Counted from the first letter of the stretch, positions 1 to 53,322 are shown. The stretch is 64,000 nt of DNA from Burkholderiales bacterium (GCA_019745565.1 JAIESW010000023.1:17835-81834), one strand, 5' to 3'. Program-made: numbers and translations. Notes: generated from the sequence alone by a model not told the origin.

Positions 1-1709
1 TGGATGAAGCCGAGAATGCGTTCCGGAAGGCACTGGAACTGCAGCCGCAGTTTCGCGACGCCAGCATGGCTCTGGCCAACGCGATGCACGCCGCAGGGCG
101 CTACCCTGAAGCGATTGCCGTGCTCGAGGGCATCCTGCGCGACGAACCGGACCATGCGGAAGCGTTGCTCAACGTGGGCGTCGCACTGGCGCAGTTGAAC
201 CGGGCCACGGAGGCGGAACGCTGTCTGCTGCGCGCCGTGGAACTCAAGCCGACGCTGGCCGAAGCCCTCGTATCGCTGTCGAACCTGTACTTCGCGCTGT
301 CGCGTCTCGCGGAGGGCGAAGCCGCCGCGCGCAAGGCCATCGACATCCAGCCGGAGAACGCGGTCGCATGGATGAATCTCGGCACGGTACTGCAACAGCA
401 GGGACTCGTCGCCGAATCCGTGGATGCCACCCGCAAGGTGATCGCCCTCACGCCGCACGACGGCTTCGCCTGGAACAACCTGCTGCTGACGCTGAACTAT
501 CTGCCCGACGTGAGCGCGGAGGAACTGTTTGCCGAGCACCTCGCCTTCGGTGCCGAGTTCGATCCCGATCCGGCCACGGTGCCGCGCTTCGATACGATCG
601 ACCGTCGCCCCGATCGCCCCTTGCGCGTGGGCTATCTGTCCCCCGACTTCCGTGCCCACGTCGTGGCCTTCTTCTTCGAACCCGTGCTCGCCGCCCACGA
701 CCCCAAGCGCGTCGAGACCGTGTGCTACTACAACCACACCATCGTCGACGACACCACCCGCCGCCTGCGCCAACGCGCCCAGCTCTGGCGCGACGTGGCC
801 GCCATGAACGATGCCGAGCTGGTGCGCCTGATGCGCGAGGATCGCCTGGATGTCGTGGTGGATCTGGCCGGCCATACCGCCAAGAGCCGGCTCACCGCGC
901 TCGCCCAGCGGGTGGCGCCGGTACAGATCGCCTGGCTGGGCTATCCCAACACCACCGGTCTTGCGCAGATGGACTGGCGCATCACCGATGCGCGCGCCGA
1001 TCCGCCCGGCGCTGAAGCCCATCACACCGAGCGGCTGCTGCGCCTGCCCGAGGTGTTCCTGTGCTACGAACCGCCACCCGAGGCGCCCGAGATCGCCGAT
1101 CCGCCCAGTGCGAGCGGCGCCCCGATCACCTTCGGGGTGTTCAACAACTTCCCCAAGGTCACCGATGCGATGCTGGCGCTGTGGGCGCGCATTCTGGAAC
1201 GCACGCCGAACTCGCGCCTGTGCATCAAGACCGCTTCGCTCCGTGATGAAGGTGTGTTGCGCCACTTGCGCGCCCGGATGCAGCGTGCCGGCCTGGACCT
1301 CGAGAGGATCGAACTCGCGGGCTTCACCCCGAGCCGTCGCGAGCACCTTGCGGCCGTTGCCAACGTGGACATCGCTTTGGACACGTTTCCTTATCACGGC
1401 ACCACCACGACCTGCGAATCGCTCTGGATGGGAGTCCCGGTGGTCACGCTCGAAGGCGATCGGCATGCGTCGCGAGTCGGGGTCAGCCTGCTCGAACACC
1501 TGGGGTTGGACACCCTGATCGCGCGTTCCCCGGATGAATACGTGTCGATCGCCGTCGCGCTCGCCGCGGACCCGGGTCGCCGTGCTTCCATGCGCGGGAC
1601 CCTGCGTGAGCGCATGCGACACGCCAAGTTGACCGACGTTCCGGGATTCACCAGTCAGCTCGAGGAAGCGTATCGGTCCGCGTTCCGGGATACCACCGAG
1701 AGCCGCTGA
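1..1709 (+). CDS. TPR-repeat protein with C-terminal GT41 (SPINDLY/OGT-like) glycosyltransferase domain; 5' end lies upstream of the window
   Basis: Reading frame is open from base 3 (DEAENAFRKALELQPQF precedes the first Met at 66). TPR-like repeats in the N-terminal half. C-terminal blocks RVGYLSPDF, GHTAKSRL, APVQIAWLGYPNTTG and DTFPYHGTTTTCESLWMGVPVVTL are typical of bacterial SPINDLY-family O-GlcNAc-transferase-like proteins. Confidence 0.8.
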   Translation, partial: DEAENAFRKALELQPQFRDASMALANAMHAAGRYPEAIAVLEGILRDEPDHAEALLNVGVALAQLNRATEAERCLLRAVELKPTLAEALVSLSNLYFALSRLAEGEAAARKAIDIQPENAVAWMNLGTVLQQQGLVAESVDATRKVIALTPHDGFAWNNLLLTLNYLPDVSAEELFAEHLAFGAEFDPDPATVPRFDTIDRRPDRPLRVGYLSPDFRAHVVAFFFEPVLAAHDPKRVETVCYYNHTIVDDTTRRLRQRAQLWRDVAAMNDAELVRLMREDRLDVVVDLAGHTAKSRLTALAQRVAPVQIAWLGYPNTTGLAQMDWRITDARADPPGAEAHHTERLLRLPEVFLCYEPPPEAPEIADPPSASGAPITFGVFNNFPKVTDAMLALWARILERTPNSRLCIKTASLRDEGVLRHLRARMQRAGLDLERIELAGFTPSRREHLAAVANVDIALDTFPYHGTTTTCESLWMGVPVVTLEGDRHASRVGVSLLEHLGLDTLIARSPDEYVSIAVALAADPGRRASMRGTLRERMRHAKLTDVPGFTSQLEEAYRSAFRDTTESR

Positions 1710-1731: not shown

Positions 1732-3522
1732 GTGAACACATCGTTGGCCTCGAGCCGTGTGACCGAGGGAATCGAAGCGCACCGCGCCGGCGACTTCGAA
1801 GCTGCCGCTCGACACTACGAGGCAGCGCTTGCCTTGACGCCAGAGCATGGCGACGCACGCTACCTTCTCGCCCTGGTCGAGATGGCCCGTGCCCGGTTCG
1901 AACAGGCTCGAGATCACATCGCGGTCGCGGTCCGCTCGGATCCGGCCAACGCACACTACCTGTTTGCAGCCGGCGAGATAGCGCGGCACTTCAACGATCG
2001 TGACGAAGCGATCAAGGCGTTCGAAACGGCAATCGCCATCGACGGTTCCAGTGCGGAGCGCTGGGCTCAGCTGGGTGACCTGCATCTCGCGGCGGGCCGG
2101 CCAAAGGCGGCCGAACACCATGCGCTGAGGGCAATCGAGATCGAGCCCCGATTGCAGAATGCATGGCATCTGCTCGGCGAGAGCCTGCGTGCCCAGGCTC
2201 GAAGTGCGGAAGCCGTCGAGGCGTATCGCGAGGCCCTACGCCTCGAGGGCGGCTACGGTCCCGCGGCGGAGAGCCTGCTCATGACCCTCAATTTCTGTGA
2301 TGCGATCGCTCCCCGGGAGGTTGCCGAAGAGCACCGTCGAATCGGAGCTCTCTTCGGTCCGTGGGGTGTTCGTGGAACGCCGGACGCGCCCTGGAGCGTG
2401 GATGACGCACCGCTTGCACGCAAACGCCCGCTGCGAGTCGGCTATGTCTCCGCCGACTTCGGGCAGCACGTGGTGAGCTTCTTCATCGAGCCGGTTCTCG
2501 CGACGCACGATCGCCAGGCCGTGGAAGTGTTCTGCTATTTCGCGGCGCCGCATGACGACCCGCGCTCCGAGACCGTCAAAGGTCACGCCACCCACTGGCG
2601 CAGCCTGGTAGGGCTCGACGACACTTCGGCCGCGGAGCACATTCGCGCCGACCAGCTGGACGTCGCCGTCGACCTGTCCGGCCATACGCGGGGGAACAGG
2701 CTGGGCGTGTTCGCGCGCCGTGTGGCGCCGGTCCAGGTGAGCTGGCTCGGCTATCCGAACACGACGGGCGTGCCTGCGATGGACTACAGGCTCACGGACG
2801 TATGGTGCGACCCGCCCGAGACCACCGATTCATTCCACTCCGAACGCCTGTGGCGACTCGAACCGGGGTTCATCTGCTATCGATCACGCCCCGAGGCTCC
2901 TCCTGTCAACGCACTGCCGGCTCTGACTGCCGGACACATTACGTTCGGATGCTTCAATAGTCCGGCCAAGATCGCCGATACGTGCCTGCGTCTGTGGGCA
3001 AACATCCTGGCGAGTACGCCCGGCTCGCGCCTCCTGCTGAAGGGCAAGGGGTTCGACGAGCCGGATCTTTCTGCCGACCTGCGAAAGCGCTTCCAGGCCT
3101 TGGGGATCGATCCGACACGCGTTGATCTCGACGGCGGTCGCCCGAGCTTCGTCGAGCACCTGTCCTGCTACGGCACGGTGGACATCGCACTCGACACATT
3201 TCCGTACCACGGGACGACCACGACCTGCGAGGCGCTCATGATGGGTGTGCCCGTGGTTTCGCTGGCGGGTCCTGTGCACGCTTCCAGGGTCGGTGCCAGC
3301 CTCCTGACGCGGCTGGGCCGCCGCGAATGGATCGCCGGCACGCCCGACGAGTATGTGGCGATCGCTGCAGCACTCGCGGCGAACCGCGGTCAGTTGACGT
3401 ATTGGCGGTCGGAACTGCGCTGGAAGCTGCAGTCGAGCGCACTCGGCGACGTGGCAACCCTGACACGATCACTTGAGGCCGCGTACCTCGCCATGCTTCG
3501 CCAGACCGCCGCGGGCCGCTGA
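1732..3522 (+). CDS. TPR-repeat / GT41 (SPINDLY/OGT-like) glycosyltransferase, paralog of the upstream gene
   Basis: GTG start 9 nt after AGGAG. Same C-terminal blocks as the upstream gene (RVGYVSADF, GHTRGNRL, APVQVSWLGYPNTTG, DTFPYHGTTTTCEALMMGVPVVSL). N-terminal TPR-like repeats. Confidence 0.8.
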   Translation: MNTSLASSRVTEGIEAHRAGDFEAAARHYEAALALTPEHGDARYLLALVEMARARFEQARDHIAVAVRSDPANAHYLFAAGEIARHFNDRDEAIKAFETAIAIDGSSAERWAQLGDLHLAAGRPKAAEHHALRAIEIEPRLQNAWHLLGESLRAQARSAEAVEAYREALRLEGGYGPAAESLLMTLNFCDAIAPREVAEEHRRIGALFGPWGVRGTPDAPWSVDDAPLARKRPLRVGYVSADFGQHVVSFFIEPVLATHDRQAVEVFCYFAAPHDDPRSETVKGHATHWRSLVGLDDTSAAEHIRADQLDVAVDLSGHTRGNRLGVFARRVAPVQVSWLGYPNTTGVPAMDYRLTDVWCDPPETTDSFHSERLWRLEPGFICYRSRPEAPPVNALPALTAGHITFGCFNSPAKIADTCLRLWANILASTPGSRLLLKGKGFDEPDLSADLRKRFQALGIDPTRVDLDGGRPSFVEHLSCYGTVDIALDTFPYHGTTTTCEALMMGVPVVSLAGPVHASRVGASLLTRLGRREWIAGTPDEYVAIAAALAANRGQLTYWRSELRWKLQSSALGDVATLTRSLEAAYLAMLRQTAAGR

Positions 3523-3555: not shown

Positions 3556-3588
3556 AAAGAAAAAGGGGCCGAAGCCCCTTTTTCTTGC
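3556..3588. terminator. Bidirectional rho-independent terminator between the GT41 gene and pilin copy 1
   Basis: aaagaaaaaGGGGCcgaaGCCCCtttttcttg: GC stem 3565-3569/3574-3578, 4-nt loop, A-run on one side and T-run on the other. Sits between convergent stops at 3522 and 3620. Confidence 0.8.
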
Positions 3589-4060
3589 CTGCTCCTCGAC
3601 GAGAAGCGAGCGCTTGCGATCAGCCCTTCGGGTAGAACTTGGTCGGGATGGTGCCACCCACCGACCAGCTGTTGCCGGAGGCATTGCAGGTCGACACCCA
3701 GACCACGTTGCTCGCGTTCACTTGCGAGTTGATGTTCTGCAGGGTCGCCGTGATCGTGGCGCCGGCGGTCGTGGCAGCGAAGCTCACGGCCGAAACGTAG
3801 CGGCCCGTGATCGCGGTGGGCAGACCGGCCGTGGCCGCGTCGCTCACACCACCGGCCGAAGAGGCACCACCCAGCGTGCCTTCCGAGCAGGCCTGGCCGG
3901 CAGCAAGACGCGCCGGTTCGGTCAGGCTGGTGGCTTCCTGGATCTTCGCGCGGATCGTGTAGTCCTGATAAGCCGGCAGCGCGATCGCCGCCAGAATGCC
4001 GATGATCGCCACCACGATCATCAGTTCGATCAGGGTAAAGCCTTGCTGAATGCGCTTCAA
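3559..4060. repeat. Direct repeat copy 1 (terminator + pilin gene), period 1188 bp
   Basis: Aligns base for base with 4747-5248. No differences seen over 3559-3970. Five substitutions in the last 90 nt (3971, 4025, 4046, 4052, 4060). Confidence 0.9.
3620..4060 (-). CDS. pilA: Type IVa pilin (major pilin, PilA/PilE-like), copy 1
   Basis: Class III signal peptide [34 protein letters not shown] (Gly-1, Phe+1, Glu+5). TTG start preceded by AGGAG. 146 aa. Confidence 0.93.
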
Positions 4061-4159: not shown

Positions 4160-4690
4160 TCACGCCGCCTTCGTCGCGATCAGGTTGACGCTGATCGGCA
4201 CGCCCTTGAAATCGAGTTCGCTGCTGTCGTCGAACAGTCCGAAGGAATCGACCCGTCGAATGCCCACGAAACCGGCGACCTCCAGGAAATCCCTCAGAAA
4301 TTCTTCGTTCAGCCCGACCACGTGGTAGTCGAACGCATCCGTGTGCCCACCGAACATCATGCGCATCACGATGAATCTTTCGGCTTGCGACGTCGATTCC
4401 TTCAACAGGAGCAACTCTGCGAGGGTGTCGAGATCAGGAGCACTGACGTAGAGCACGCCCCCCGGCACCAGAACCCGCAGCCATTCCTTCAGCGCCTGCG
4501 AAATGTCACCGAGATAGTCGAGGTGCTCGATGACGTGAGAGGCGTACACCTCGTGAAAAGTCCCGTCCGGAAATCTCGACAGGTCCTTGCACAACCCGAT
4601 GTGATCCACCCCTGGTCGCGGTACGGCATCGAAGATTTCCCAACCCTCCCGCGTCTCCCACCCACCGATATGCAGTTTGCGCATTGACAA
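4160..4690 (-). CDS. Small class I SAM-dependent methyltransferase (Methyltransf_11-like)
   Basis: 176 aa. KLHIGGW (degenerate motif I), FHEVYASHVIEHL, LRVLVPGGVLYVSAPD. Lower G+C than its neighbours in hand-counted samples. Confidence 0.65.
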   Translation of the reverse strand: MSMRKLHIGGWETREGWEIFDAVPRPGVDHIGLCKDLSRFPDGTFHEVYASHVIEHLDYLGDISQALKEWLRVLVPGGVLYVSAPDLDTLAELLLLKESTSQAERFIVMRMMFGGHTDAFDYHVVGLNEEFLRDFLEVAGFVGIRRVDSFGLFDDSSELDFKGVPISVNLIATKAA

Positions 4691-4743: not shown

Positions 4744-4776
4744 TGCGAAAAAGGGGCCGAAGCCCCTTTTTCTTGC
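4744..4776 (-). terminator. Rho-independent terminator downstream of pilin copy 2 (duplicate of 3556-3588)
   Basis: Same GGGGCcgaaGCCCC hairpin with flanking A/T runs. On the minus strand the stem is followed by tttttcgc. Confidence 0.75.
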
Positions 4777-5248
4777 CTGCTCCTCGACGAGAAGCGAGCG
4801 CTTGCGATCAGCCCTTCGGGTAGAACTTGGTCGGGATGGTGCCACCCACCGACCAGCTGTTGCCGGAGGCATTGCAGGTCGACACCCAGACCACGTTGCT
4901 CGCGTTCACTTGCGAGTTGATGTTCTGCAGGGTCGCCGTGATCGTGGCGCCGGCGGTCGTGGCAGCGAAGCTCACGGCCGAAACGTAGCGGCCCGTGATC
5001 GCGGTGGGCAGACCGGCCGTGGCCGCGTCGCTCACACCACCGGCCGAAGAGGCACCACCCAGCGTGCCTTCCGAGCAGGCCTGGCCGGCAGCAAGACGCG
5101 CCGGTTCGGTCAGGCTGGTGGCTTCCTGGATCTTCGCGCGGATCGTGTAGTCCTGATAGGCCGGCAGCGCGATCGCCGCCAGAATGCCGATGATCGCCAC
5201 CACGATCATCAGCTCGATCAGGGTAAAGCCTTGTTGAATACGCTTCAT
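4747..5248. repeat. Direct repeat copy 2 (terminator + pilin gene)
   Basis: See 3559-4060; offset is exactly 1188 bp. Confidence 0.9.
4808..5248 (-). CDS. pilA: Type IVa pilin, copy 2 (protein identical to copy 1)
   Basis: 146-aa translation identical to 3620-4060. ATG start preceded by AGGAG. Confidence 0.93.
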
Positions 5249-5313
5249 TTATGGGACTCCTAAGGCGGTTGGACGGGTGATACACAGACGGGCGATGTGC
5301 GCCTCCGCTAAAC

Positions 5314-5328
5314 GCAAGCGGTATGCCA
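5314..5328 (-). promoter_or_regulatory. Candidate sigma54 (-24/-12) promoter for pilin copy 2
   Basis: Minus strand reads cacTGGCATaccgcTTGCGttt, which matches TGGCAC-N5-TTGCA with invariant GG/GC at the correct spacing. About 65-80 nt upstream of the ATG at 5248. Confidence 0.6.
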
Positions 5329-5543
5329 GTGGCAAGAGGGCCTCGCAAGGTCTTGGCGCAGGAGACAAATCGGCGGCTAGAGGGGCTCGGGACCCGGTCA
5401 GACCCCGTCCTGTCGCGGATTTTCCGGACGCGCTGCGCAGGGCATTCTCTCGAACCGATAGATTTCCGCGCCGGACCTTGCCGCCCGCTCGGTTTTCACC
5501 TGCGAGCCGGGACGGCACACCCGGCATTTCCTGACGTTTTCCG

Positions 5544-7223
5544 TCAGTCGCCGGAGTAGCCCGGAATGCGGGTCACATCCACCTCGTCGATCTGTTCGCG
5601 ATCGAGAAACTGCTCGGCGTAGCGCAGGTACACGCGCTCGCGCACGAAGATGTCGAACAGATCCGGATCCACGTGCCCGTTCAGCTTGAACTTGCCGAGG
5701 ATGTGCAGCGATTCGGTCAGCGTCTTGCCCTTCTTGTAGGGCCGGTCCTTCGCCGTCAGAGCCTCGAAGATGTCGGCGATGCCCATGATGCGGGCCTGCA
5801 CCGACATCTGATCGCGCGTGAGGCCGCGCGGGTAGCCCTTGCCGTCCATGCGCTCGTGATGGCCGCCGGCGTACTCGGGCACGTTCTTGAGATGCTTCGG
5901 CCAGGGCAGCGCCTCAAGCATCTTGATGGTTACCTCGATGTGATGATTGATGATCTGGCGCTCCTTGGCGGTCAGCGTGCCGGCCCGGATCGTCAGGTTC
6001 TCCAGTTCGTCGTCGGTGAGGAAGTCCACGGTCTCGCCGTGCACGTTGCGCCAGCGGTATTTCTTCGAGATCTCGCGCACGCGCTCCTGGTCCTCGGGCG
6101 GCATCGCTTCGCTGCCGACGTTGCACGCGCGCAGGAAACGGCGGTCCTCGTCGATCTCGCGGATGCGGTCGCGGAACGCCTGTTCGAGCACCGCGCCGTC
6201 ACTGCCGGCGGTGGCGAATCGTGCTGCGCCGCGCAATCGCAGCATCTCGATCTCGGCATCGCGCTTGATGACCTCGAAACGGGTGTCGATGAGCTCGATG
6301 CGGTCAGCGATGGTCTGCAGCTTGGTCGCCTTGTCGACCACGTGCACCGGCGTCGTAACCTTGCCGCAATCGTGCAGCAGGCCGGCGATCTTCAGCTCAT
6401 AGCGGTCGATGTCGTTCATCGCCCAGTCTGCGAGCGGCCCGGCGTTCGTGCCGTGGGTCGCCTCGGCCAGCATCATCGTCAGCACCGGCACGCGGTTGCA
6501 GTGGCCGCCGGTGTAGGGCGACTTGTCGTCGATCGCCTCGTTGATGAGGTTGATGAACGACTCGAACAGGTTTTCCAGCTGGAGGATCAGCAGCCGGTTG
6601 GTGAGGGCCACCGCGGCCTGGGACGCAAGCGACTGCGCGAGCCGCTCGTCGGCCTCGCTGAACGGGACGATCTCGCCGGTGGAACGGTCCTTGGCGTTGA
6701 TCAGCTGCAGCACCCCGATGATCTCGCCTTCGTGGTTCTTCATCGGGACCGTGAGGAACGACTTCGAGCGGTAACCCGTGCGCTGATCGAAGGCCTTGGT
6801 ACCCGAGAAGTCGAAGCCCTCGGCAGTGTAGGCGTCGGCGATGTTGACCGTGCTGTCCTTCAGCACCGAGTAGGCCACCACCATGGACGTGTTCTCGCGA
6901 CCGGTCTCGTCGCGCAGGCGGATCGGCTCGAACGGGATCTTGACACCCGTGGTGCCGCCCATCGCGATGCCGAGCGACTCGGTGCGGATGATCTCGAAGT
7001 TGAGCGTGTTCTGATTGTCGGCATGACGCCGGTAGAGCGTCCCGCCGTCCGCGTTCGTGATCTTCTTGGCAGCGATCAGGATGGTCTCGAGCAGCCGGTC
7101 GAGATCCTTTTCCTTCGAGAGCGCGATCCCGATCTGGTTGAGTTCCTCCAGACGCCGGATGAGATCGCCCGCGCGGACCTGGACGACCTCGGTGCGATCC
7201 TTGGTTTGGACGGGAGGGCTCAT
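5544..7223 (-). CDS. GAF domain-containing HD-GYP phosphodiesterase (predicted c-di-GMP hydrolase)
   Basis: N-terminal GAF (TGYRSKSFLTVPMKNHEGEIIGVLQLINAKD). HD motif GLLHDCGK. HHERMDGKGYPRGL is the HD-GYP signature. Confidence 0.88.
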   Translation of the reverse strand: MSPPVQTKDRTEVVQVRAGDLIRRLEELNQIGIALSKEKDLDRLLETILIAAKKITNADGGTLYRRHADNQNTLNFEIIRTESLGIAMGGTTGVKIPFEPIRLRDETGRENTSMVVAYSVLKDSTVNIADAYTAEGFDFSGTKAFDQRTGYRSKSFLTVPMKNHEGEIIGVLQLINAKDRSTGEIVPFSEADERLAQSLASQAAVALTNRLLILQLENLFESFINLINEAIDDKSPYTGGHCNRVPVLTMMLAEATHGTNAGPLADWAMNDIDRYELKIAGLLHDCGKVTTPVHVVDKATKLQTIADRIELIDTRFEVIKRDAEIEMLRLRGAARFATAGSDGAVLEQAFRDRIREIDEDRRFLRACNVGSEAMPPEDQERVREISKKYRWRNVHGETVDFLTDDELENLTIRAGTLTAKERQIINHHIEVTIKMLEALPWPKHLKNVPEYAGGHHERMDGKGYPRGLTRDQMSVQARIMGIADIFEALTAKDRPYKKGKTLTESLHILGKFKLNGHVDPDLFDIFVRERVYLRYAEQFLDREQIDEVDVTRIPGYSGD

Positions 7224-7253
7224 GAGCGGGAAGGGATCGGGATCTCAGGCGAG

Positions 7254-9659
7254 TTACTTGATACAGACGGCCCGCACCTGCTTCATGTCGGTGATGCCCT
7301 GCAGTACCTTCTCGATGCCGTCCTGCTTGAGTGTGCGCATGTTCTCGGCCAGCGCCGTAGCCACGATCTCGGCGACACGGGCGTGCTCCTGGATATGTTT
7401 CTTGATCGCGTCGGTACCGATCAGCAGTTCGTGCAGACCCACGCGACCCTTGTAGCCGGTGCCGCTGCAGGTATCGCAACCGACCGGGGTGTAGAGGGTG
7501 AACTGGCCCTTGTCGTTGCCGAAGTTCTGCACCCATTCGCGATACACGGCCTCGTAGGAACCCTTGGGGTCCTTCTTCCACGCCTCGGTGTTCTTCAACT
7601 CGACGCAGTATTCCTCGAGGATGCCCTTCAGCTCCTCCTGCGACGGCGTGTGCGCCGCCTTGCACTTGGAGCAGAGGCGCTTCGCGAGACGTTGCGCCAG
7701 CACGCCCAGCAGGGCGTCGGCGAAGTTGAACGGGTCCATCCCCATGTCGAGCAGGCGGATGATCGATTCCGGCGCACTGTTGGTGTGCAGGGTGGCGAAC
7801 ACCAGGTGACCGGTGAGCGAAGCCTCGATGCCGATGGAGGTGGTCTCCTTGTCGCGCATTTCGCCGACCATGATGATGTCCGGGTCGGCTCGCAGGAACG
7901 CCCGCATCGCGCTGGCGAAGTTGAGTCCCGCCTTGGGATTCATCTGCACCTGGCGCAGGCCCTTCTGCGTGATTTCCACCGGGTCCTCGGCGGTCCAGAT
8001 CTTGGTCTCGGGCGTGTTGAGGTAGCCCAGCACGGAGTGCAGCGTGGTGGTCTTGCCCGAACCGGTCGGGCCGCAGACGAAGAACAGGCCGTAGGGCTTC
8101 GAAACCGTTTCCTTGACGTTCTTGAAGTTGCGCGCCGACAGGCCCAGCTTCTCCAGCGGGATGGGTTCGCCCGCCGCCAGGATACGCATGACGATGTCCT
8201 CGACACCGCCCTGCGAAGGCACCGTCGCCACCCGCAGTTCGATGTCGAGCGGGCCGAACTTCTTGAACTTGATCTTGCCGTCCTGCGGCTTGCGCTTCTC
8301 CGAGATGTCGAGGTCGCACATGATCTTCAAGCGCGCCGCGAGGGCGTTGCGGTAGGACGCGGGCACCGAGATGTAGGGCACCAGCGTACCGTCCTTGCGG
8401 AACCGCACCTCGGTCTTGGCCTTACCGGGGAAGGGTTCGATGTGAATGTCGGAAGCGCCCTGGTGATAGGCATCGACGATGATCTTGTTGACGAGCTTCA
8501 CCAGCTCGTTGTCCTGGGCGAGCGAAGCGTCGTCGCTGCCGCCGCCGCCGATGAAATCATCGTCCGATTCGTCGTCGAGCTTGCCGAGCAGTTCGCCGAT
8601 GTCGGCACTGTCCATCTCGATGCCCATGCCACCGCCGCCGCCGCCGAAATACTGGTCCAGCGTCGCCCGGAACTCACGGAGCGTGCTCACGCGATACACC
8701 ACCTTGGCGCGCGGGAACACGTTGCCGACGATGCGCGAGGCCCGCAGGCGCTCGGGATCGGTGGTGAGGACCAGCAGGCCCTCCTTGCTTTCCTCGAGCG
8801 GCACCCAGCCGCCGCTCTCGACGAAGTCGCGCTTCAGGTTCTTCAGGAGGTCCATCGGCCGGATGCGGTCGCCGCGGAACGGCTCGTAGGGCACGCCGAA
8901 GAACGCCGACAGCGCCTCGCCGATGGCCGTGGGCTTAACCTGGAACTCGTCGGTGAGCACCTCCTCGATGTCGAGGCCCTTGCGACGCGCCGAGCGGGTG
9001 GCGAGCTCCATCTCCTCCGCCGACAGCACGGCATTCGTGACGAGCGCGTCGTACTTGCCGCGCAGTACCGTGGTGGACTTCTGGCGCAGCTTGAGCGCAA
9101 TCGCAAGCGTCTCGCTCAAGTTGACGATGCCTTCCTCGGCGAGCGGCCCGAAGTTCTCGCCGTTCTTCGAGTTGATCACCTGCACGATGCCGACCAGTTC
9201 GTTGGTCCCGGCTTCCAGCACCGGGCAGACCAGCATCTGCTTGGTCCGGTAGCCGGTGCGCTTGTCCACTTCCTTCAGGAACTTGAGCTGCGGGCTCAGG
9301 TTGCGCAGCTCGTTCTCGTCGTACACATCGCGGATATTGGCGAGCTTCTTGGTGGACGCGACGAAGCCTGCGATCGACTGGTCGTTGATCGGCAGCTTGA
9401 GATCCTTGAACGAGGTGAGGCCGGTCTTGACCTTGGAGATGATGGCCTGCTTGTCCTCCGCGACCGCGTAGACCGTGAGACGATCGGCATCGAACAGCGA
9501 GCAGATGTCCTGCGATAGCTCGAGCATGATCTCGTCCACGTTGGTCGTGGCATGGATCCTGTTCGTGACGGCCTGGAGCTTGCGCTGGAACTCCAGCTTG
9601 TTGCTCATCTCGGCCAGGTTCTGACTGGCCTGCGGCTTGGCGTCGAGCACCGAACTCAT
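7254..9659 (-). CDS. GspE/PilB-family secretion/pilus ATPase with N-terminal GAF domain
   Basis: 801 aa. N-terminal GAF-like region (TGYRTKQMLVCPV...LVGIVQVINSK). T2SSE_N-like segment. Walker A GPTGSGKTTTL, Asp box DPDIIMVGEMRD, LVFATLHTN, tetracysteine CSKC...CDTC. Confidence 0.9.
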   Translation of the reverse strand: MSSVLDAKPQASQNLAEMSNKLEFQRKLQAVTNRIHATTNVDEIMLELSQDICSLFDADRLTVYAVAEDKQAIISKVKTGLTSFKDLKLPINDQSIAGFVASTKKLANIRDVYDENELRNLSPQLKFLKEVDKRTGYRTKQMLVCPVLEAGTNELVGIVQVINSKNGENFGPLAEEGIVNLSETLAIALKLRQKSTTVLRGKYDALVTNAVLSAEEMELATRSARRKGLDIEEVLTDEFQVKPTAIGEALSAFFGVPYEPFRGDRIRPMDLLKNLKRDFVESGGWVPLEESKEGLLVLTTDPERLRASRIVGNVFPRAKVVYRVSTLREFRATLDQYFGGGGGGMGIEMDSADIGELLGKLDDESDDDFIGGGGSDDASLAQDNELVKLVNKIIVDAYHQGASDIHIEPFPGKAKTEVRFRKDGTLVPYISVPASYRNALAARLKIMCDLDISEKRKPQDGKIKFKKFGPLDIELRVATVPSQGGVEDIVMRILAAGEPIPLEKLGLSARNFKNVKETVSKPYGLFFVCGPTGSGKTTTLHSVLGYLNTPETKIWTAEDPVEITQKGLRQVQMNPKAGLNFASAMRAFLRADPDIIMVGEMRDKETTSIGIEASLTGHLVFATLHTNSAPESIIRLLDMGMDPFNFADALLGVLAQRLAKRLCSKCKAAHTPSQEELKGILEEYCVELKNTEAWKKDPKGSYEAVYREWVQNFGNDKGQFTLYTPVGCDTCSGTGYKGRVGLHELLIGTDAIKKHIQEHARVAEIVATALAENMRTLKQDGIEKVLQGITDMKQVRAVCIK

Positions 9660-9766
9660 GGCATTGCCCTCGGAAGGAAACGCGATTCCGGTCGATGCGG
9701 CGCACGCGGCACGCTCTTCATCCCTCGGAAACCCATTTTAAACCTCGCACTTCGTGAAACCACCAA

Positions 9767-9791
9767 CCGGCCGCGCCCCAGGCGCGACCGG
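9767..9791 (-). terminator. Candidate terminator hairpin downstream of the phosphodiesterase gene
   Basis: ccggccgcgcc-cca-ggcgcgaccgg, an 11-bp GC stem with one mismatch. On the minus strand it is followed by ttggtggttt. Confidence 0.45.
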
Positions 9792-9873
9792 ACCTCAGCC
9801 ACTCCCCAGGATACTTTGAAGGACCCTGCACCCCAGCGTCGCCGGGCGCTGCCCATTCACGGATCCTGGCATC

Positions 9874-10638
9874 TCAGAACTTGAAGACATGCCCGTTCGA
9901 GAGCATGCGTGGGTTGAACGCCCCCGCACACTCTTCGACCTCTGCCATGGTGAGCGCTCCCTCGCCAGGCTTGAGATGGGTGATGAAGATGCGCGCCTGA
10001 CGTTTCAGCTTGGCCAGTTCCTCGGCCAGCATGTCGGGCCAGAGATGCTTCGAAGCGATCGCGAGATCCTTCTCGCCGTTGCTGAAGGCAGTCTCGATGA
10101 TGACGTAGCGCAGGTTCTCGATGCGGTTCACCTCGGCCCAGAGCTCGTCGCAGGCGCCGGTGTCGCCGGTGAACAGGAGGGCCGCGGCGCCGCTGTCGAG
10201 GACGTAGCCCACCGCGGGCACGGTGTGGTTCACCTTGACCGGGGTGATCCTGCGGCCGTTCAGATCCACGGCCTGCCCGGGCGTGACCGGCGCGAAGCGC
10301 AGGAACGGCTTGTCCGTGTCGGGGATGGTGGAGAAATCCGGCCAGATCTTCCAGTTGAAGATGTGGTCACGAATGATCTGCAGGGTCTCGGCCGTGGCAT
10401 GCACCGTGATCGGCTGCGAGCGCATGCCGCCTACGGTATCCACCAGGAACGGCAGCATCGCCAGGTGGTCGAGATGTGAGTGCGTGAGGAAGACGTGGTC
10501 GATCAGCTGCAGCTCGGAGAGCGTGAGATCGCCCACGCCGGTCCCGGCATCGATCAGCACGTCCTGGTCGAGCAGCATGGACGTGGTCCGGAGGTTGCCC
10601 CCGATCCCGCCGCTGCAGCCGAGTACACGGATGAGCAT
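9874..10638 (-). CDS. Class II 3',5'-cyclic-nucleotide phosphodiesterase (metallo-beta-lactamase fold)
   Basis: 254 aa from MLIRVLGCSGG. LTHSHLDHLAML matches the H-x-H-L-D-H class II cAMP-PDE signature. The longer track ORF (to 11625) overlaps the cyclase gene out of frame. Confidence 0.8.
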   Translation of the reverse strand: MLIRVLGCSGGIGGNLRTTSMLLDQDVLIDAGTGVGDLTLSELQLIDHVFLTHSHLDHLAMLPFLVDTVGGMRSQPITVHATAETLQIIRDHIFNWKIWPDFSTIPDTDKPFLRFAPVTPGQAVDLNGRRITPVKVNHTVPAVGYVLDSGAAALLFTGDTGACDELWAEVNRIENLRYVIIETAFSNGEKDLAIASKHLWPDMLAEELAKLKRQARIFITHLKPGEGALTMAEVEECAGAFNPRMLSNGHVFKF

Positions 10639-10640
10639 CG

Positions 10641-12866
10641 CTATTTCGTGTCGAAGTCGAAGACGCCGTCCCAGTTGGGCGGCGGCGGATCGCTGCGGAA
10701 GCGCGCGATCCGCTTGATGAATTCCTTGTACAGCCCGGACTCCGGCTCGGCCTTCTGCAGATTGAGAAGCTGCAGCTCGGCCTTGTCCCAGTCCTGCGCG
10801 CGGTAGAACTTGAGCGCCTGCGCGAAGAGCTTCAGGCGATCCAGCGTTTCCTTGTCGACGCTGCCCTGCAGGCCGATCGGCTCGAAGATCGCGACCGGCT
10901 CGTCCTTGCCCTTGACGCGCACGCGATCGAGTTCGCGCACCACCACATCGGGAGCCGCCTTGCGCGTCTCCTCGCCGATGATCATCGTGACGCCGTACTT
11001 CTTGGTGAGCGATTCGAGCCGCGACGCGAGGTTCACCGCATCGCCCATCACGGTGTAGGCGACGCGCACGGCCGAGCCCATGTTGCCCACGCTCATGCGC
11101 CCGGTGTTGAGACCGATGCCGATGGACAGCGGTCGCCACCCGTTCGCGCGGAACTCGGCGTCGAGCGATTTCAGCGTGATCTGCATCTCGAGGCCGGCCA
11201 GCACGGCGTTGCGCGCGTGATCCTTGTCCTCGATGGGGGCGCCCCAGAAAGCCATGATCGCATCGCCCATGTATTTGTCGATGGTGCCGCGATGGCCATA
11301 GATCACTTCGGTCATGGGGGTGAGATAGGCGTTCATGAGCCGCGACAGCGCTTTCGGGTCGAGTCCTTCGGACAAACTGGTGAAGTCGCGCACATCGGAG
11401 AACAGCACGGTGAGCTCGCGGCTCTCGCCCTCCATGGAAAAGCGCTCCGGATCGCGGCTCATTTCCTCCGCGATTTCGGGCGGCACGTACTGGCCGAAAC
11501 GACTGGTGATCTGGCGCTTGACACGCGTCTCCACGAAGTAGCCGTAGGACATGTTGAGCGCGTACAGCATGACCACCATAAGCAATCCAGATGCCAAAGG
11601 CAGCACCAGATTGCCGCCGTTCCAAATGACCAGGTTACCGGCGACGACGGCTGCCAGCACACCCAGCGTGACCAGCGTCGCCTTGAGCGGGTTCAGGAAC
11701 GGCAGCACCACGGCCATGATGACGCCGGTCACCAGGAGCAGGAACACCTCGGCGCCCAGCACGTAGGGCGGCTTCTGCTTGATCGTCCCGTCGAGCATGC
11801 CGCCGATCAGGTTGGCGTGGATCTCGACCCCGGGGTACAGCGGCCCTGCCGGCGTCGACCGCAAGTCCTGCAGGCCCGGCGCCGTGGTGCCGATGAGAGC
11901 GATCTTGTCCTTGATCTCCTCGGCCGGCACACGGTCGTGCAGCACGTCGGTGGCCGACACGTACTGGAAGCTGTGCTCCGGCCCGCGGTAGGGCACGAGC
12001 GCGTTGGCACCCCGGTCGAGCGGAACCCGCAGGTTGCCCACTTCGAGCCATTCCAGACCGGGGTAATTCTTGGTGAGCAGACCGTCGGCCGGATAGCCCG
12101 GCTTGACCGGCGGCGACCCCATCAACAGGCGCACGATCGCCAGCGCGAGGGGCTCGTAGTACGCACCCTTGTACTCGGCGAGCATCGGCACGCTGCGATG
12201 CACACCGTCGGGATCGGTCCACGGCGTGACGTGACCGGCGCCGGCCGCTGCAGCCTGCAGTTCGGGCAGGTTGCCGCCGTACCCCGGGAACGAGGAAAAG
12301 TCGATGCGCTTGCCGGTGAACGTCCCCGCGGGGAGCACGGGCTTCGGGATCGCGCCGATCGCGATCCCCTCCTTGCCGGTCAGCAGGCTGGAGAAGTAGT
12401 AGCCCAGCACGACGGGCCGCCCTTTGAGCGACTCCGCGAAGATCCGGTCGTATTCGAGCTTCGGCGCGAGGGCTTCCAGCGCACTCCGGTACTGGACGTT
12501 GCCCTTGAGGTCGCCCTCGCCGAACTGGCGCAGCAACTCGAGCGCGGAGCTTTCGTCCCGCTCCGGGAAGAAGACGTCGAAGCCGAGCACGGCGACGTGG
12601 TGCCGCTCAAAGATCTTGTCGACCAGCGCCGCGAGCCGGTCACGCCGCCACGGCCAGCGGCCTTCCTCGGCGAGACTCTTCTCGTCGATGTCGATGATGA
12701 CCACGCGCGGATCCACGGTGCGCGGCATCGTGAGCAGCAGCCGCGCGTCGTAGGCGATGGCCTCGAGCTGATCGATGGCACGCAACCGCGACCAGCCCGC
12801 CGCGTGGGCGAGGAACACCAGCAACACCGCGACGCCCAGCAGGATGCGGATCGCGTGTTTCTTCAA
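10641..12866 (-). CDS. CHASE2 sensor domain-containing class III adenylate/guanylate cyclase
   Basis: TTG start after GGGGAG. N-terminal TM + CHASE2 (EEGRWPWRRD). Multi-TM segment. Cyclase core LTVLFSDVRDFTSLSE, GTIDKYMGDAIMAFWGAP, YTVMGDAVNLASRLE. Confidence 0.9.
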   Translation of the reverse strand: MKKHAIRILLGVAVLLVFLAHAAGWSRLRAIDQLEAIAYDARLLLTMPRTVDPRVVIIDIDEKSLAEEGRWPWRRDRLAALVDKIFERHHVAVLGFDVFFPERDESSALELLRQFGEGDLKGNVQYRSALEALAPKLEYDRIFAESLKGRPVVLGYYFSSLLTGKEGIAIGAIPKPVLPAGTFTGKRIDFSSFPGYGGNLPELQAAAAGAGHVTPWTDPDGVHRSVPMLAEYKGAYYEPLALAIVRLLMGSPPVKPGYPADGLLTKNYPGLEWLEVGNLRVPLDRGANALVPYRGPEHSFQYVSATDVLHDRVPAEEIKDKIALIGTTAPGLQDLRSTPAGPLYPGVEIHANLIGGMLDGTIKQKPPYVLGAEVFLLLVTGVIMAVVLPFLNPLKATLVTLGVLAAVVAGNLVIWNGGNLVLPLASGLLMVVMLYALNMSYGYFVETRVKRQITSRFGQYVPPEIAEEMSRDPERFSMEGESRELTVLFSDVRDFTSLSEGLDPKALSRLMNAYLTPMTEVIYGHRGTIDKYMGDAIMAFWGAPIEDKDHARNAVLAGLEMQITLKSLDAEFRANGWRPLSIGIGLNTGRMSVGNMGSAVRVAYTVMGDAVNLASRLESLTKKYGVTMIIGEETRKAAPDVVVRELDRVRVKGKDEPVAIFEPIGLQGSVDKETLDRLKLFAQALKFYRAQDWDKAELQLLNLQKAEPESGLYKEFIKRIARFRSDPPPPNWDGVFDFDTK

Positions 12867-12981: not shown

Positions 12982-13797
12982 CTACGCGGCCCGGAAGAAG
13001 AACTCCATCTTGACGCCGGCCAGTTCGATCACGTCGTGATCGTTCAACTGATGGGCCTGCGGATCGAGCGCCTTGCCGTTCACCACCGGGAAGCTCGCGC
13101 CTTCCACGTGAGTGATGAAGTAGCCCTGCGGCCGCTTCGCGATCACCGCGACCTGGACACCGGGCTTGCCGAGCGTGGTGAGCGCCTTGGTGAGCGGCAG
13201 TTCCTTGCCCGCGTTCGGTCCGGACAGGATCTGGATGACCCCCTGCTGGCCGCCGGCCGCGACGGGTGCCACCGGCGTGATGGTGGCCGGAGCGACCACC
13301 TGCTGCGCCCTCATCTCCGCCGCCGCCGCCGCAGTCTCGGCAGCCATACCCAGCTGCGGGTTGATCTGCGTGTCGGACAACGCCGTCTTCACGCCGCTGG
13401 TGGTCGTGAGATTGGTCTGCGTGTCGCCGAGCTTCGGCTCCGCAGGCGCCTTGGGCGGGGCGCGCAGCACCATGGTCTTCTCGAAGTCGGCCGCCGTCGT
13501 GGTGCTGGGCGCCTCGTTCACGTACTTCAGCTTGTACTTGCCGATCTCGATCACGTCGCTGTTCTGCAGGAAGTGCTTCTTGATCGGCTGACCGTTCACG
13601 AGGGTCCCGTTGGTACTGCCCAGGTCCTCGAGGAAGGAGTCGTTCAGGATCGTGACGATGGCGGCGTGCTCGCCGCTCACGGCCAGATTGTCGATCGGAA
13701 TGTCGTTGTGCGCCTTCCGACCGATCGTCGTGCGCTCCTTCGTCAGCGTGTACTCCTTCAGCATCACGCCGTCGAGAGTGAGAATCAACTTAGCCAT
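12982..13797 (-). CDS. FHA domain protein (canonical N-terminal FHA plus degenerate C-terminal FHA-like module)
   Basis: Start MAKLILTLDG at 13797. N-terminal TIGRKAHNDIPI...VSGEHAAI...STNGTLVNG. Ala/Thr/Pro-rich linker. C-terminal TLGKPG...VVNGKAL...VIELAGVKMEFF lacks the SxxH motif. Confidence 0.85.
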   Translation of the reverse strand: MAKLILTLDGVMLKEYTLTKERTTIGRKAHNDIPIDNLAVSGEHAAIVTILNDSFLEDLGSTNGTLVNGQPIKKHFLQNSDVIEIGKYKLKYVNEAPSTTTAADFEKTMVLRAPPKAPAEPKLGDTQTNLTTTSGVKTALSDTQINPQLGMAAETAAAAAEMRAQQVVAPATITPVAPVAAGGQQGVIQILSGPNAGKELPLTKALTTLGKPGVQVAVIAKRPQGYFITHVEGASFPVVNGKALDPQAHQLNDHDVIELAGVKMEFFFRAA

Positions 13798-13813: not shown

Positions 13814-14638
13814 TTACTTGAACCACGACAGGACCTTGCCCAACCACGTTTCCGCCGCCGGAAAATCGCGGTTGACCCTGACCAGAACGACGGACACGTT
13901 GTCCCGTCCACCGTTGTCGTTCGCCATCTGCACCAGTTGATTCGCCGCGAGCGGCAGGTTCGACCCCATCGCATTCAGCGTCAACTCGATGTCCTCGTCC
14001 TCGACCATGTCGTTGAGGCCGTCCGAACACAGCAAGTACAAGTCGCCCGGCCGCGCATCGTAGGTGTGGATTTCGGCCTCCACCTCCGGTTCGATGCCGA
14101 GCGCACGTGTCACCAGATTCTTGTTCTGCGACCGCCGCGCCGCTTCGCGCGTGATCATGCCGCTGTCGATCTGCTCCTGCAGCAGGCTGTGGTCGCGCGT
14201 CACCTGCTCCAGCCGGTCCTCGCGCAGGCGGTACAGCCGCGAGTCGCCGATGTGGGCCACCGACAGGCGATTGTCGCGGAACAGGGCCACCACTAGCGTG
14301 GTGCCCATGCCGGCATACTGGGGTTGGCTGCTCGCCGACTGGTAGATGGATGTGTTCGCCTTCGCGATGATGCCCTTCAGCAGTCGGATCGCCTGCAGAT
14401 CCCCGTCGGCCTGATCGAGCGAGTGCAGGTTGGTCTTGGCGATCGCCTGCCGCATCTCGGAGGTGATCAGCGCCACCGCGATCCCGCTCGCGACTTCACC
14501 GGCATTGTAGCCGCCCATGCCGTCTGCGAGTACCGCGAGTCCGACTTCACCGTCGGAGGAGATTGCATCCTCGTTGTGGGACCGCACCATCCCGGTATGG
14601 GTAGCACTGGCGATTTCGAGGGCCTTGGCCAGATTCAT
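13814..14638 (-). CDS. PP2C-family Ser/Thr protein phosphatase
   Basis: HTGMVRSHNEDA, LADGMGG, LLCSDGL, GGRDNVSVV motifs. 274 aa. Confidence 0.92.
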   Translation of the reverse strand: MNLAKALEIASATHTGMVRSHNEDAISSDGEVGLAVLADGMGGYNAGEVASGIAVALITSEMRQAIAKTNLHSLDQADGDLQAIRLLKGIIAKANTSIYQSASSQPQYAGMGTTLVVALFRDNRLSVAHIGDSRLYRLREDRLEQVTRDHSLLQEQIDSGMITREAARRSQNKNLVTRALGIEPEVEAEIHTYDARPGDLYLLCSDGLNDMVEDEDIELTLNAMGSNLPLAANQLVQMANDNGGRDNVSVVLVRVNRDFPAAETWLGKVLSWFK

Positions 14639-37131: not shown

Positions 37132-37241
37132 CCTTCCGAAGTCCAGACTTGGCGCGGGTTTCCGAGGACTGCCGCGGTCGCCGCGAGGGCCCGCGCGCGT
37201 GAGTCCTGCCGGCAGCGCGCATGCGCGCATCATGATCACCG

Positions 37242-44217: not shown

Positions 44218-44292
44218 CAGTCCGCAGTACCCTACGCGGAGGCGTTGCGCGGGCGTCAAGTACGACCCCGCGACGCCGTAAAAAGGGTTCTG

Positions 44293-48636: not shown

Positions 48637-48697
48637 ACTCCGGCGCTTTCCTCCCGTCGCTTCCGAAGTCGCGACACGCTGCGACTGCCCGCACGCC

Positions 48698-49867: not shown

Positions 49868-49882
49868 GATGACGCCCGTCCG

Positions 49883-50455: not shown

Positions 50456-50503
50456 GGCACCCGTCAGCGCCCGGCGCCTCAACCCTGGAGGGCTGGCGCC
50501 GAT

Positions 50504-53254: not shown

Positions 53255-53322
53255 TCCTCGAGCCTCCCATCCGGCCGCGATCCCGGCGACAACCATCCCA
53301 TGCGCACGGCATCCCGATTCCC

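Follow-up and report, generated by a model that had tools for sequence, protein, structure and literature searches.

A GAF-bearing PilB/MshE-like ATPase in a row of cyclic-nucleotide signalling genes: a candidate cAMP-gated accessory pilus motor

We examined a 64,000-nucleotide stretch of DNA from a Burkholderiales bacterium (GCA_019745565.1, JAIESW010000023.1:17835-81834; hereafter the window), which encodes a secretion-type ATPase with an N-terminal GAF domain. An earlier, sequence-only reading had singled out this gene as a PilB/GspE-family ATPase with no machinery partners nearby. The gene lies on the minus strand, which corrects that reading, in a same-strand row ordered kinase, PP2C, FHA, cyclase, MBL (metallo-beta-lactamase), ATPase, HD-GYP, first pilin, methyltransferase and second pilin (Table 1). 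From the kinase to the first pilin, the intergenic gaps are 4, 13, 115, 2, 214, 30 and 295 bp, the last separating HD-GYP from pilin. The cyclic-nucleotide and Ser/Thr-phosphorylation signalling genes that flank the ATPase had previously been overlooked. With them, the pocket residues of the GAF domain and the loss of a cyclic di-GMP (c-di-GMP) motif suggest that the ATPase may be a motor gated by cyclic AMP (cAMP).

Table 1. Features of the ATPase locus, with the number of well-covered relative loci that have each signalling neighbour (cNMP, cyclic nucleoside monophosphate; ORF, open reading frame; pLDDT, predicted local distance difference test; SAM, S-adenosylmethionine).
Feature	Position in window	Strand	Basis	Well-covered loci
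CHASE2 + Ser/Thr protein kinase, 852 aa	14643..17201	minus	Pfam	about 12-14 of 30
PP2C-type Ser/Thr phosphatase	13814..14638	minus	Pfam	18/30
FHA protein, 271 aa from MAKLIL start	12982..13797	minus	Pfam FHA 74.5 bits; orthologue 264 aa	18/30
CHASE2 + class III cyclase, 741 aa	10641..12866	minus	Pfam, conserved catalytic residues	22/30
MBL-fold, candidate class-II-like cNMP phosphodiesterase, 254 aa	9874..10638	minus	Pfam Lactamase_B_2 + PDEase_II	26/30
GAF-MshEN-T2SSE ATPase, 801 aa	7254..9659	minus	ORF + Pfam, NCBIfam, homologues	
ATPase: GAF domain, residues 11-193	9081..9629	minus	phmmer, model, Foldseek, pocket conservation	
ATPase: predicted cNMP (cAMP) pocket of GAF, R60, T62, V77, A97-G98, D132, T135, T139, Q160				
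ATPase: MshEN (N1) domain, residues 204-338	8646..9050	minus	Pfam, model, motif regex	
ATPase: Gly/Asp-rich disordered linker, residues 339-383	8511..8645	minus	pLDDT <50, composition	
ATPase: N2 + C-terminal domains, residues 384-801	7257..8510	minus	Pfam T2SSE, invariant motifs	
GAF-HD-GYP phosphodiesterase, 559 aa, 30 bp downstream of ATPase	5544..7223	minus	Pfam GAF, HD, HD_5	26/30, adjacent
Sigma-54-type -24/-12 element TGGCATACCGCTTGC	5313..5328	minus	pattern match	
Type IVa pilin copy 1, 146 aa	4808..5248	minus	Pfam N_methyl + Pilin on identical copy	
Small SAM-methyltransferase-like gene between pilins	4160..4690	minus	Pfam Methyltransf_11	
Type IVa pilin copy 2, same protein, TTG start	3620..4060	minus	Pfam N_methyl + Pilin	

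Domain architecture and relatives of the ATPase

The ATPase ORF has a third-position GC content (GC3) of 0.90, a codon bias typical of a real gene. Pfam assigns T2SSE to residues 381-795 (388.5 bits), MshEN, formerly T2SSE_N, to residues 254-342 (37.4 bits against a cut-off of 23.1) and, marginally, GAF to residues 41-189 (24.9 bits against 22.4). The Walker A motif GPTGSGKT (residues 530-537), the Asp box/Walker B DPDIIMVGEMRD (592-603), the His-box stretch LVFATLHTN (619-627) and a tetracysteine zinc site (Cys663/666/728/731) are all invariant among 26 homologues, and the core is the best-conserved part of the protein (mean top-residue frequency 0.90). The sequence-only reading had described a complete secretion-ATPase core preceded by a T2SSE_N-like segment; both were recovered, along with every motif that it quoted. 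These matches place the protein in the PilT/VirB11-like secretion ATPase superfamily (Pfam T2SSE, PF00437). The linker, which has 13 Gly and 10 Asp in 45 residues and is the least conserved segment of the protein, had been thought to join the GAF domain to the segment after it; it sits instead at the junction between MshEN and the ATPase N2 domain. In the zinc site, 61 residues separate the two CxxC pairs (window 7467-7673, residues 663-731) in each of the 120 close homologues, against 40-43 in distant GAF-bearing homologues, which points to a clade-specific insertion of ~20 residues in the zinc domain.

Against solved structures, the core scores highest with PilB from Myxococcus xanthus (359 bits), PilF from Thermus (357 bits) and PilB from Geobacter (335 bits), followed by EpsE/GspE (322 and 314 bits) and PilT (116 bits). 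Scores fell below the NCBIfam cut-offs for GspE (TIGR02533; 443.7 bits against 630.25) and for the PilT family (TIGR01420; 171.3 bits against 319.1), and the protein has an N1 (MshEN) domain, unlike the retraction ATPases PilT/PilU. Assignment as PilB-type or MshE-type is to be read with the reference sets in mind, as the PDB holds no full-length MshE and NCBIfam no MshE model.

An exhaustive HMMER search with residues 200-801 over 1.84 billion cluster representatives yielded 50,317 relatives, and we surveyed the 150 nearest of the clusters formed at 50% identity. At 720-1000 aa, most of these are longer at the N-terminus by 190-430 residues. About a fifth (31 of 150) have the same type of GAF domain, some in tandem, while 62 other near clusters that were scanned include extra MshEN copies, DUF4388 (8), DUF6982 (5), PilZ (2) and REC (2). 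The ten nearest relatives of canonical length score 362-559 bits on the PilB model, below the cut-offs of both PilB and GspE, and thus the whole clade lies outside curated PilB. Based on these comparisons, we assign the ATPase to a large, poorly studied PilB/MshE-like clade with interchangeable N-terminal sensors. A neighbour-joining tree of 147 ATPase cores is star-like, with GAF-bearing clusters not cleanly monophyletic, so we make no claim of single or multiple gain of the GAF domain.

A profile built from distant representatives added 120 distant GAF-bearing proteins. Their sources are Nitrospinota, with tandem GAF and 940-1000 aa (Candidatus Nitronauta litoralis among them), Desulfobacterales, and Thermodesulfobacteriota and other "Deltaproteobacteria" (767-772 aa); databases name all of them only "GspE/PulE family protein" or similar. 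Three such genes, from Nitrospinota and Desulfobacterota, lie among gyrA/B, topA, dprA, uvrB and mutS, and precomputed Pfam annotation within 10 kb of them includes no cyclase, pilin, platform, peptidase or secretin gene. Orphan status is therefore a trait of the whole ATPase family; judged from these loci, Betaproteobacteria added the cAMP module and the linkage to pilins. Directly upstream of two orphan GAF-ATPase genes of the Desulfobacterota type is a hydrophobic ORF of 75-85 aa (L052 9714-9941, L053 9729-9986). The two are homologous (27% identity, E 2e-10) and may represent a conserved small membrane partner.

GAF pocket and loss of the MshEN c-di-GMP motif

When residues 1-204 were compared with all PDB sequences using phmmer, every match was a GAF domain. 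The top match was the Anabaena CyaB2 tandem GAF (93.8 bits, E 1.2e-25), followed by PDE2A GAF-B (47.9 bits), PmGH, PDE6C, PDE5A, PDE10A GAF-B and the cAMP-bound Lcd1 GAF; apart from PmGH, every match with E < 1e-5 is a GAF that binds a cNMP. For residues 1-345, an AlphaFold model based on an alignment that included distant homologues (mean pLDDT 82.8) folds residues 11-193 into a six-stranded domain with flanking helices (pLDDT about 65-93 per 10-residue block), which a low-confidence hinge (residues 194-199, or 194-203 by the domain boundaries) joins to MshEN. The top 50 Foldseek matches of this model in the PDB are GAF structures (PmGH, CyaB2, PDE2A/5A/10A/6C, Lcd1; probability 1.00). Sequence search, model and structure search thus agree with the earlier proposal that the first ~190 residues are GAF-like, and the proposed check, whether the N-terminus fails to model as GAF, came out in its favor. 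Taken together, a GAF domain of the cyclic-nucleotide-binding type is supported at the N-terminus by these sequence and model comparisons. A full-length AlphaFold model made with 26 close homologues had a mean pLDDT of 50 and an unusable core. It contained a continuous helix from GAF into MshEN (residues 172-210), which the model of residues 1-345 did not reproduce; the idea of coupling through a rigid helix was therefore dropped.

The predicted pocket follows CyaB2 GAF-B, which contacts cAMP through Arg291, Thr293, Ile308, Asp356 and Asn359: Arg291 binds adenine N1, Thr293 binds N6/N7, Ile308 stacks, and Asp356 and Asn359 make water-mediated contacts to N3 (PMC4411481). In the HMMER alignment, these residues correspond to R60, T62, V77, D132 and T135, the last of which is Thr where CyaB2 has Asn359. 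Among 42 family members from species-level genomes, which are 58-96% identical, R60, T62, A97, G98, D132, T135, G136, Q160, N163 and F170 are invariant and T139 is kept in 41. Adding Desulfobacterota-type homologues (~30% identical there) leaves R60, T62, D132, T139, Q160 and N163 without variation, and T135 is kept in at least 90% of sequences over the span from Betaproteobacteria to Desulfobacterota. The cGMP-binding PDE2A GAF-B has Ile at the position of R60 and Glu at that of Q160, where both CyaB2 GAFs have Gln; this favors cAMP as the ligand. The NKFDE motif, present in "most" cNMP GAFs (PMC4411481), is represented by N163, K165 (28/42) and F170, and its D-E position reads A174-E175-E176. 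We consider it probable that the domain binds a cNMP.

The MshEN domain was modelled with good confidence (pLDDT 82-95) as a four-helix bundle plus an alpha/beta subdomain. In MshEN domains, the c-di-GMP site consists of two 24-residue motifs, for which a relaxed search pattern has also been given (PMC5013675). Neither the strict nor the relaxed pattern matched a single protein among 42 from the loci, 120 close homologues and 31 representatives of GAF-bearing clusters. Where the first motif should open with R-L-G, these proteins have K-Y/F-D, and K202 and D204 are near-invariant. At least one copy of the motif occurs in 39 of 119 non-GAF representatives, compared with 0 of 31 GAF-bearing ones (Fisher p = 4e-5, uncorrected for shared ancestry). 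As the motif is absent where a GAF domain is present and kept in some proteins that have none, the GAF domain and the c-di-GMP site look like alternatives within this clade. A PDB search with the N1 fragment gave no match to the MshE N-domain; the region resembles the N-domains of PilF and PilB, not N1 of EpsE.

Signalling genes and pilins around the ATPase

The neighboring cyclase has its metal-binding Asp residues (D491 and D535), N612 and R616 conserved in 35-36 of 36 orthologues, with K531 in 36/36 and T605 in 35/35. We take this Lys and Thr pair to be the class IIIb adenylate cyclase signature in the classification of Linder & Schultz 2003, and predict that the enzyme is of this class. 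The MBL protein keeps HxHxDH in 45/45. It matches Pfam PDEase_II with 36.7 bits against a cut-off of 23.7, over only 61 residues, and NCBIfam NF041851 with 40.7 bits against a cut-off of 400; its best PDB match, a weak one (E 6e-5), is yeast PDE1 (4ojv), a class II cNMP phosphodiesterase, and an orthologue has a precomputed match to Anti-Pycsar_Apyc1. In the HD-GYP protein, the HD and HHExxDGxGYP motifs are invariant in 39/39, and HD_5 scores 143 bits. Judging by these residues, all three partners look catalytically intact. The HD-GYP protein also has an insertion of ~85 residues (about 320-405) between HD (240-319) and HD_5 (406-522), which resembles one reported for GAF-associated HD-GYP proteins (PMC12943098). 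We looked for a conserved phospho-Thr site for the FHA protein in the hinge and N-terminus of the ATPase, and rejected this candidate as the residues there are variable.

Because the cyclase carries the Lys/Thr signature, the GAF domain keeps its Arg and Thr, and the MshEN motif is gone, cAMP is the likelier ligand. Of the three ligands proposed by the sequence-only reading, cAMP is thus favored and cGMP and c-di-GMP are less likely. That the GAF ligand is cAMP made by the adjacent cyclase seems to us somewhat better than an even chance.

To place the row in a wider context, the N-terminal 380 residues of the ATPase were used to scan one genome per species, and loci were examined with 10-kb flanks. 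This yielded 48 loci, mostly from uncultured Burkholderiales and other Betaproteobacteria, with nine cultured Undibacterium species and a Thauera metagenome-assembled genome (MAG). Thirty loci are well covered (at least 7 kb upstream and 2.5 kb downstream of the ATPase; Table 1). Among these, all 26 betaproteobacterial loci that retain any module gene have both MBL and HD-GYP, and 22 have the cyclase; the four without any module gene are Undibacterium nitidum and three loci from other phyla. In Undibacterium, where the ATPase is 63% identical, cyclase, HD-GYP and MBL are on the opposite strand, upstream of the ATPase, and the four genes stay together among housekeeping genes. Linkage that persists after rearrangement argues for a shared function. 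Across more than 20 species, the row lies in a fixed housekeeping context (dgkA, prmA, accBC); the ATPase orthologue on MAG chromosome OZ257154.1 (L005) is 91% identical.

Some loci depart from the full row. Seven (L012, L013, L014, L018, L020, L029 and L047) have PP2C-FHA-MBL-ATPase-HD-GYP without the CHASE2 cyclase and CHASE2 kinase, and in L012 the expected place of the cyclase is taken by 1.35 kb with no long ORF. In U. nitidum (L042, 428-7252), five consecutive ORFs of 243-703 aa with no Pfam match precede the GAF-ATPase; a search of this locus for machinery genes turned up none, the only identifiable products besides unknown ORFs being an amidohydrolase and a TonB receptor.

The two downstream pilin genes noted by the sequence-only reading are present, at distances of 2.0 kb (copy 1) and 3.2 kb (copy 2). 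They arose as a tandem duplication of the gene and ~60 bp downstream of it (window 3559-4050 and 4747-5240); the copies, ~500 bp each, are near-identical, with 412 bp exact, and the region upstream of copy 2 differs from that of copy 1. Relatives have one to three pilin genes at the locus (three in L005, two in L006). The element TGGCAT-N5-TTGC, a good match to the sigma-54 -24/-12 consensus, precedes copy 1, ~65 nt before the ATG and within the 295-bp gap. We scanned the relatives for a class III signal peptide motif on the same strand, up to 6 kb downstream of the ATPase. A pilin-type ORF was found in 24 of 36 eligible loci, including 24 of 24 in the window's own clade; the other 12 comprise the eight Undibacterium isolates, a related MAG from groundwater (L031) and the three loci from distant phyla.

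Pfam comparison of all sizeable ORFs in the window gave no match to a T2SSF platform (PilC/GspF), a prepilin peptidase (Peptidase_A24), a secretin or PilMNOP; the scan also found no gsp genes. This agrees with the sequence-only reading, which had found the 64 kb devoid of platform, peptidase, secretin and pilMNOPQ. Likewise, a hand-annotated Undibacterium locus has no pilin, platform, peptidase or secretin gene.

Several other genes in the window touch on pili or c-di-GMP. Two plus-strand genes for TPR + GT41 (OGT/FlmG-like) glycosyltransferases (window 66-1709 and 1732-3522) converge on the pilins, and these genes and the small methyltransferase gene also follow the pilin in L001, L005, L006, L008, L009, L020 and L041. 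The GT41 proteins and the small methyltransferase are candidate pilin-modification enzymes. A LytS-type histidine kinase (36103-37239) and a REC-LytTR regulator (35339-36106), both minus strand, lie between argH and hemC-hemD-hemX-hemY. The arrangement matches argH-algZ/fimS-algR-hemC of Pseudomonas, in which minor-pilin genes are under the control of the pair. Further along, three large plus-strand PAS-GGDEF-EAL genes stand in a row (44245-56070; 1463, 916 and 976 aa), the last two (916 and 976 aa) sharing a PAS_3-GGDEF-EAL architecture, which makes the neighborhood rich in c-di-GMP genes.

A possible cAMP-gated motor, its rivals and known systems

Our preferred reading, at a probability of roughly 0.45, is that the ATPase is an accessory PilB-like motor that is gated by cAMP and serves a type IVa pilus machine whose genes lie elsewhere. 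The anatomy of the protein, the preservation of catalytic and pocket residues, the missing c-di-GMP motif and the linkage of the genes are observed directly; the ligand bound, the sign of its effect and a pilus output we infer. In this scheme, CHASE2 would sense a periplasmic cue and the membrane adenylate cyclase would raise cAMP, which the MBL-type phosphodiesterase would remove to reset the signal. Binding of cAMP to the ATPase GAF would alter the activity or assembly of the PilB/MshE-like hexameric motor, and the GAF input would take the place of the MshEN c-di-GMP site of relatives. Having no platform of its own, the ATPase would dock on the type IVa machine and extend the pilin encoded downstream. 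The co-transcribed GAF-HD-GYP, as a second GAF receiver, would lower c-di-GMP in parallel, and the CHASE2 kinase, PP2C and FHA proteins would provide a parallel phosphorylation input. A fuller version is doubtful: that a cAMP-binding GAF domain replaced the MshEN c-di-GMP site in an accessory motor for a type IVa machine elsewhere and that, with the GAF-HD-GYP, a single CHASE2 signal would drive both pilus extension and a fall in c-di-GMP.

A number of observations weigh against a cAMP-gated pilus motor. On the ligand side, sequence is a poor guide to what a GAF domain binds: isolated CyaB2 GAF-B takes both cAMP and cGMP (PMC4411481), and since an isolated GAF can bind both nucleotides, cAMP specificity of the ATPase GAF stays a prediction. 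Seven betaproteobacterial loci, the one in U. nitidum and all three from distant phyla have no cyclase next to the ATPase. The GAF domain of the HD-GYP protein has Gly-Gly-Thr where that of the ATPase has Arg-Leu-Thr, and the two match only locally, over 38 residues; they may therefore read different ligands. On the pilus side, the ATPase scores 493.9 bits, in two stretches, on the NCBIfam PilB model (TIGR02538), below the cut-off of 675.65. No PilC/PilD-type gene was found in the window or in the annotated loci L001, L002, L035, L042 and L051-L053, and the Undibacterium module has no pilin nearby. The pilin is probably a separate transcription unit, given the sigma-54-type element in the 295-bp gap, which suggests PilR/RpoN-type control apart from the ATPase operon. 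Among RNA runs, none contains the ATPase locus (window 5200-10700).

The link between the ATPase and pili is thus real but circumstantial, and we would put a pilus output at even odds. The sequence-only reading had proposed ligand-gated filament assembly. Its first half has become much more plausible through the synteny with a cyclase, a putative cNMP phosphodiesterase and a GAF-HD-GYP protein; filament output is not established, because the PilB and GspE thresholds were failed and pilin adjacency is the only tie to pili.

The strongest rival, which we still consider unlikely, is a cNMP-gated signalling ATPase that moves no filament, its hexamer being a switch or scaffold, for instance for the HD-GYP protein or for polysaccharide output. 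The ATPase is an orphan in every lineage examined (the window, Undibacterium, Nitrospinota and Desulfobacterota), as this would predict, and it is tightly coupled to HD-GYP, with a 30-bp gap and adjacency in 26/30 loci. There is also a published precedent for PilB in signalling (PMC5544727), and M. xanthus PilB has a role in exopolysaccharide regulation. The catalytic and Zn-binding motor motifs are nonetheless invariant in a core that is the best-conserved part of the protein, and pilin genes follow the ATPase in 24/24 loci of its clade. No PilB-like ATPase is known to work without a filament machine, which also counts against a purely signalling role.

A slimmer prospect is that the GAF domain does not bind cyclic nucleotides and is a structural or dimerization module, or has another ligand, with the cyclase acting elsewhere. 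The ligands of GAF domains are diverse, none is known for PmGH, whose GAF is closest in structure, NKFDE is only partly kept, and distant homologues have no cyclase nearby. Yet, PmGH aside, the sequence matches with E < 1e-5 are all cNMP-binding GAFs, and the positions that contact base and phosphate are invariant across more than 40 species and several phyla, which would not be expected of a purely structural domain. Predicted enzymes for both synthesis and degradation of cAMP are, moreover, syntenic.

Slimmer again is the possibility that this is the ordinary and sole PilB of its lineage, which gained a GAF domain while pilC and pilD lie elsewhere. Among both NCBIfam models and PDB families, PilB gives the highest score, the gene adjoins those for major pilins, and the window's AlgZ/AlgR-like pair points to a genome with a type IVa pilus system. 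This is countered by the shortfall on TIGR02538 (494 bits against 676), by the ten nearest canonical-length relatives, which also fall below the PilB and GspE cut-offs, and by the occurrence of the same architecture as an orphan in other phyla. A GspE for a type II secretion system encoded elsewhere is very improbable: the ATPase scores 444 bits on TIGR02533 and EpsE structures are among its PDB matches, but this is below the cut-off of 630 and lower than the PilB score, N1 resembles the PilF/PilB N-domains rather than that of EpsE, the window has no gsp genes, and the adjacent genes encode pilins, not pseudopilins. Finally, we dismiss a Pycsar-type anti-phage cyclic-nucleotide defence, as the matches of the cyclase to PADLOC PycC models (112 bits) and of the kinase to PD-T4-6 models are generic to the class III cyclase and Ser/Thr kinase folds, and, despite the precomputed Apyc1-family match of an MBL orthologue, PADLOC gives nothing meaningful for the ATPase, HD-GYP, MBL and FHA proteins, the cyclase is a CHASE2 membrane sensor, and the fixed housekeeping context in more than 20 species is unlike a mobile defence island.

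The cAMP-gated motor that we favor would have close counterparts among known systems. Like MshE of Vibrio cholerae and the c-di-GMP-binding PilB of M. xanthus and PilB2 of Clostridium perfringens, the ATPase has an N-terminal MshEN, an N2 and a C-terminal ATPase domain with a tetracysteine, and a nucleotide messenger would act directly on the N-terminal part of the extension ATPase. Unlike them, it has a GAF domain in front and no 24-residue c-di-GMP motifs (0/162), falls below the PilB equivalog threshold, and is encoded outside an msh/pil machinery cluster. The Thermus thermophilus PilF and other N-terminally extended PilB-like ATPases share the long regulatory N-terminal extension. In PilF, this consists of three MshEN-type domains that bind c-di-GMP, whereas here it is a GAF domain.

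The GAF domain has the same fold as those of CyaB1/CyaB2 and mammalian PDE2/5/6/10, which include its closest sequences, with the CyaB2 GAF-B contacts conserved, and likewise its C-terminal helix leads to the effector. The effector here is a hexameric secretion-type ATPase instead of a cyclase or phosphodiesterase; the GAF domain is single in the window's clade, unlike the tandem of CyaB2, and tandem in Nitrospinota homologues; and the model has a low-confidence hinge after it where CyaB and PDE proteins have a rigid helix. The neighboring GAF-HD-GYP resembles Tlr0485 of Thermosynechococcus, a GAF-HD-GYP phosphodiesterase activated by cAMP, and PmGH of Persephonella, with HD and HHExxDGxGYP intact; it differs in being co-located with a GAF-ATPase, a cyclase and a phosphodiesterase, and its GAF domain lacks the Arg present in CyaB2 and the ATPase. 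Binding of cAMP by a GAF domain is also known from Lcd1. In the Pil-Chp/CyaB/Vfr system of Pseudomonas aeruginosa, as proposed here, cAMP from a class III cyclase controls type IV pili; there it acts through the transcription factor Vfr, while in the window the ATPase itself carries the sensor, which would make control direct and post-translational.

According to a 2024 review of PilB control, c-di-GMP is the sole messenger that binds the ATPase, and cAMP acts through Vfr-dependent transcription. A full-text literature search found no paper describing or testing a GAF-fused PilB/GspE. Some members already carry automated labels such as "PilB-like protein / GAF domain-containing protein", and thus the architecture itself is already in databases; what the present analysis suggests as new is a pilus-type ATPase under second-messenger control in which both the sensor and the messenger differ from those known. 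If this is true, cAMP would for the first time be seen to act on a type IV filament ATPase itself and not through transcription. How the motor switches pilus extension on and off is still an open question, for which the GAF-ATPase module would be a compact, testable case of direct cAMP gating, and the HD-GYP partner offers a case of cAMP-to-c-di-GMP cross-talk. The family is large, spanning Betaproteobacteria, Nitrospinota and Desulfobacterota, and because cultured Undibacterium strains carry the GAF-ATPase, genetics and biochemistry are feasible. The organism of the window is a drinking-water/freshwater biofilm bacterium, for which switching of pili and biofilm would be ecologically relevant. 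Sequences near-identical to window 5200-10700 occur in drinking-water, freshwater and biofilm metagenomes.

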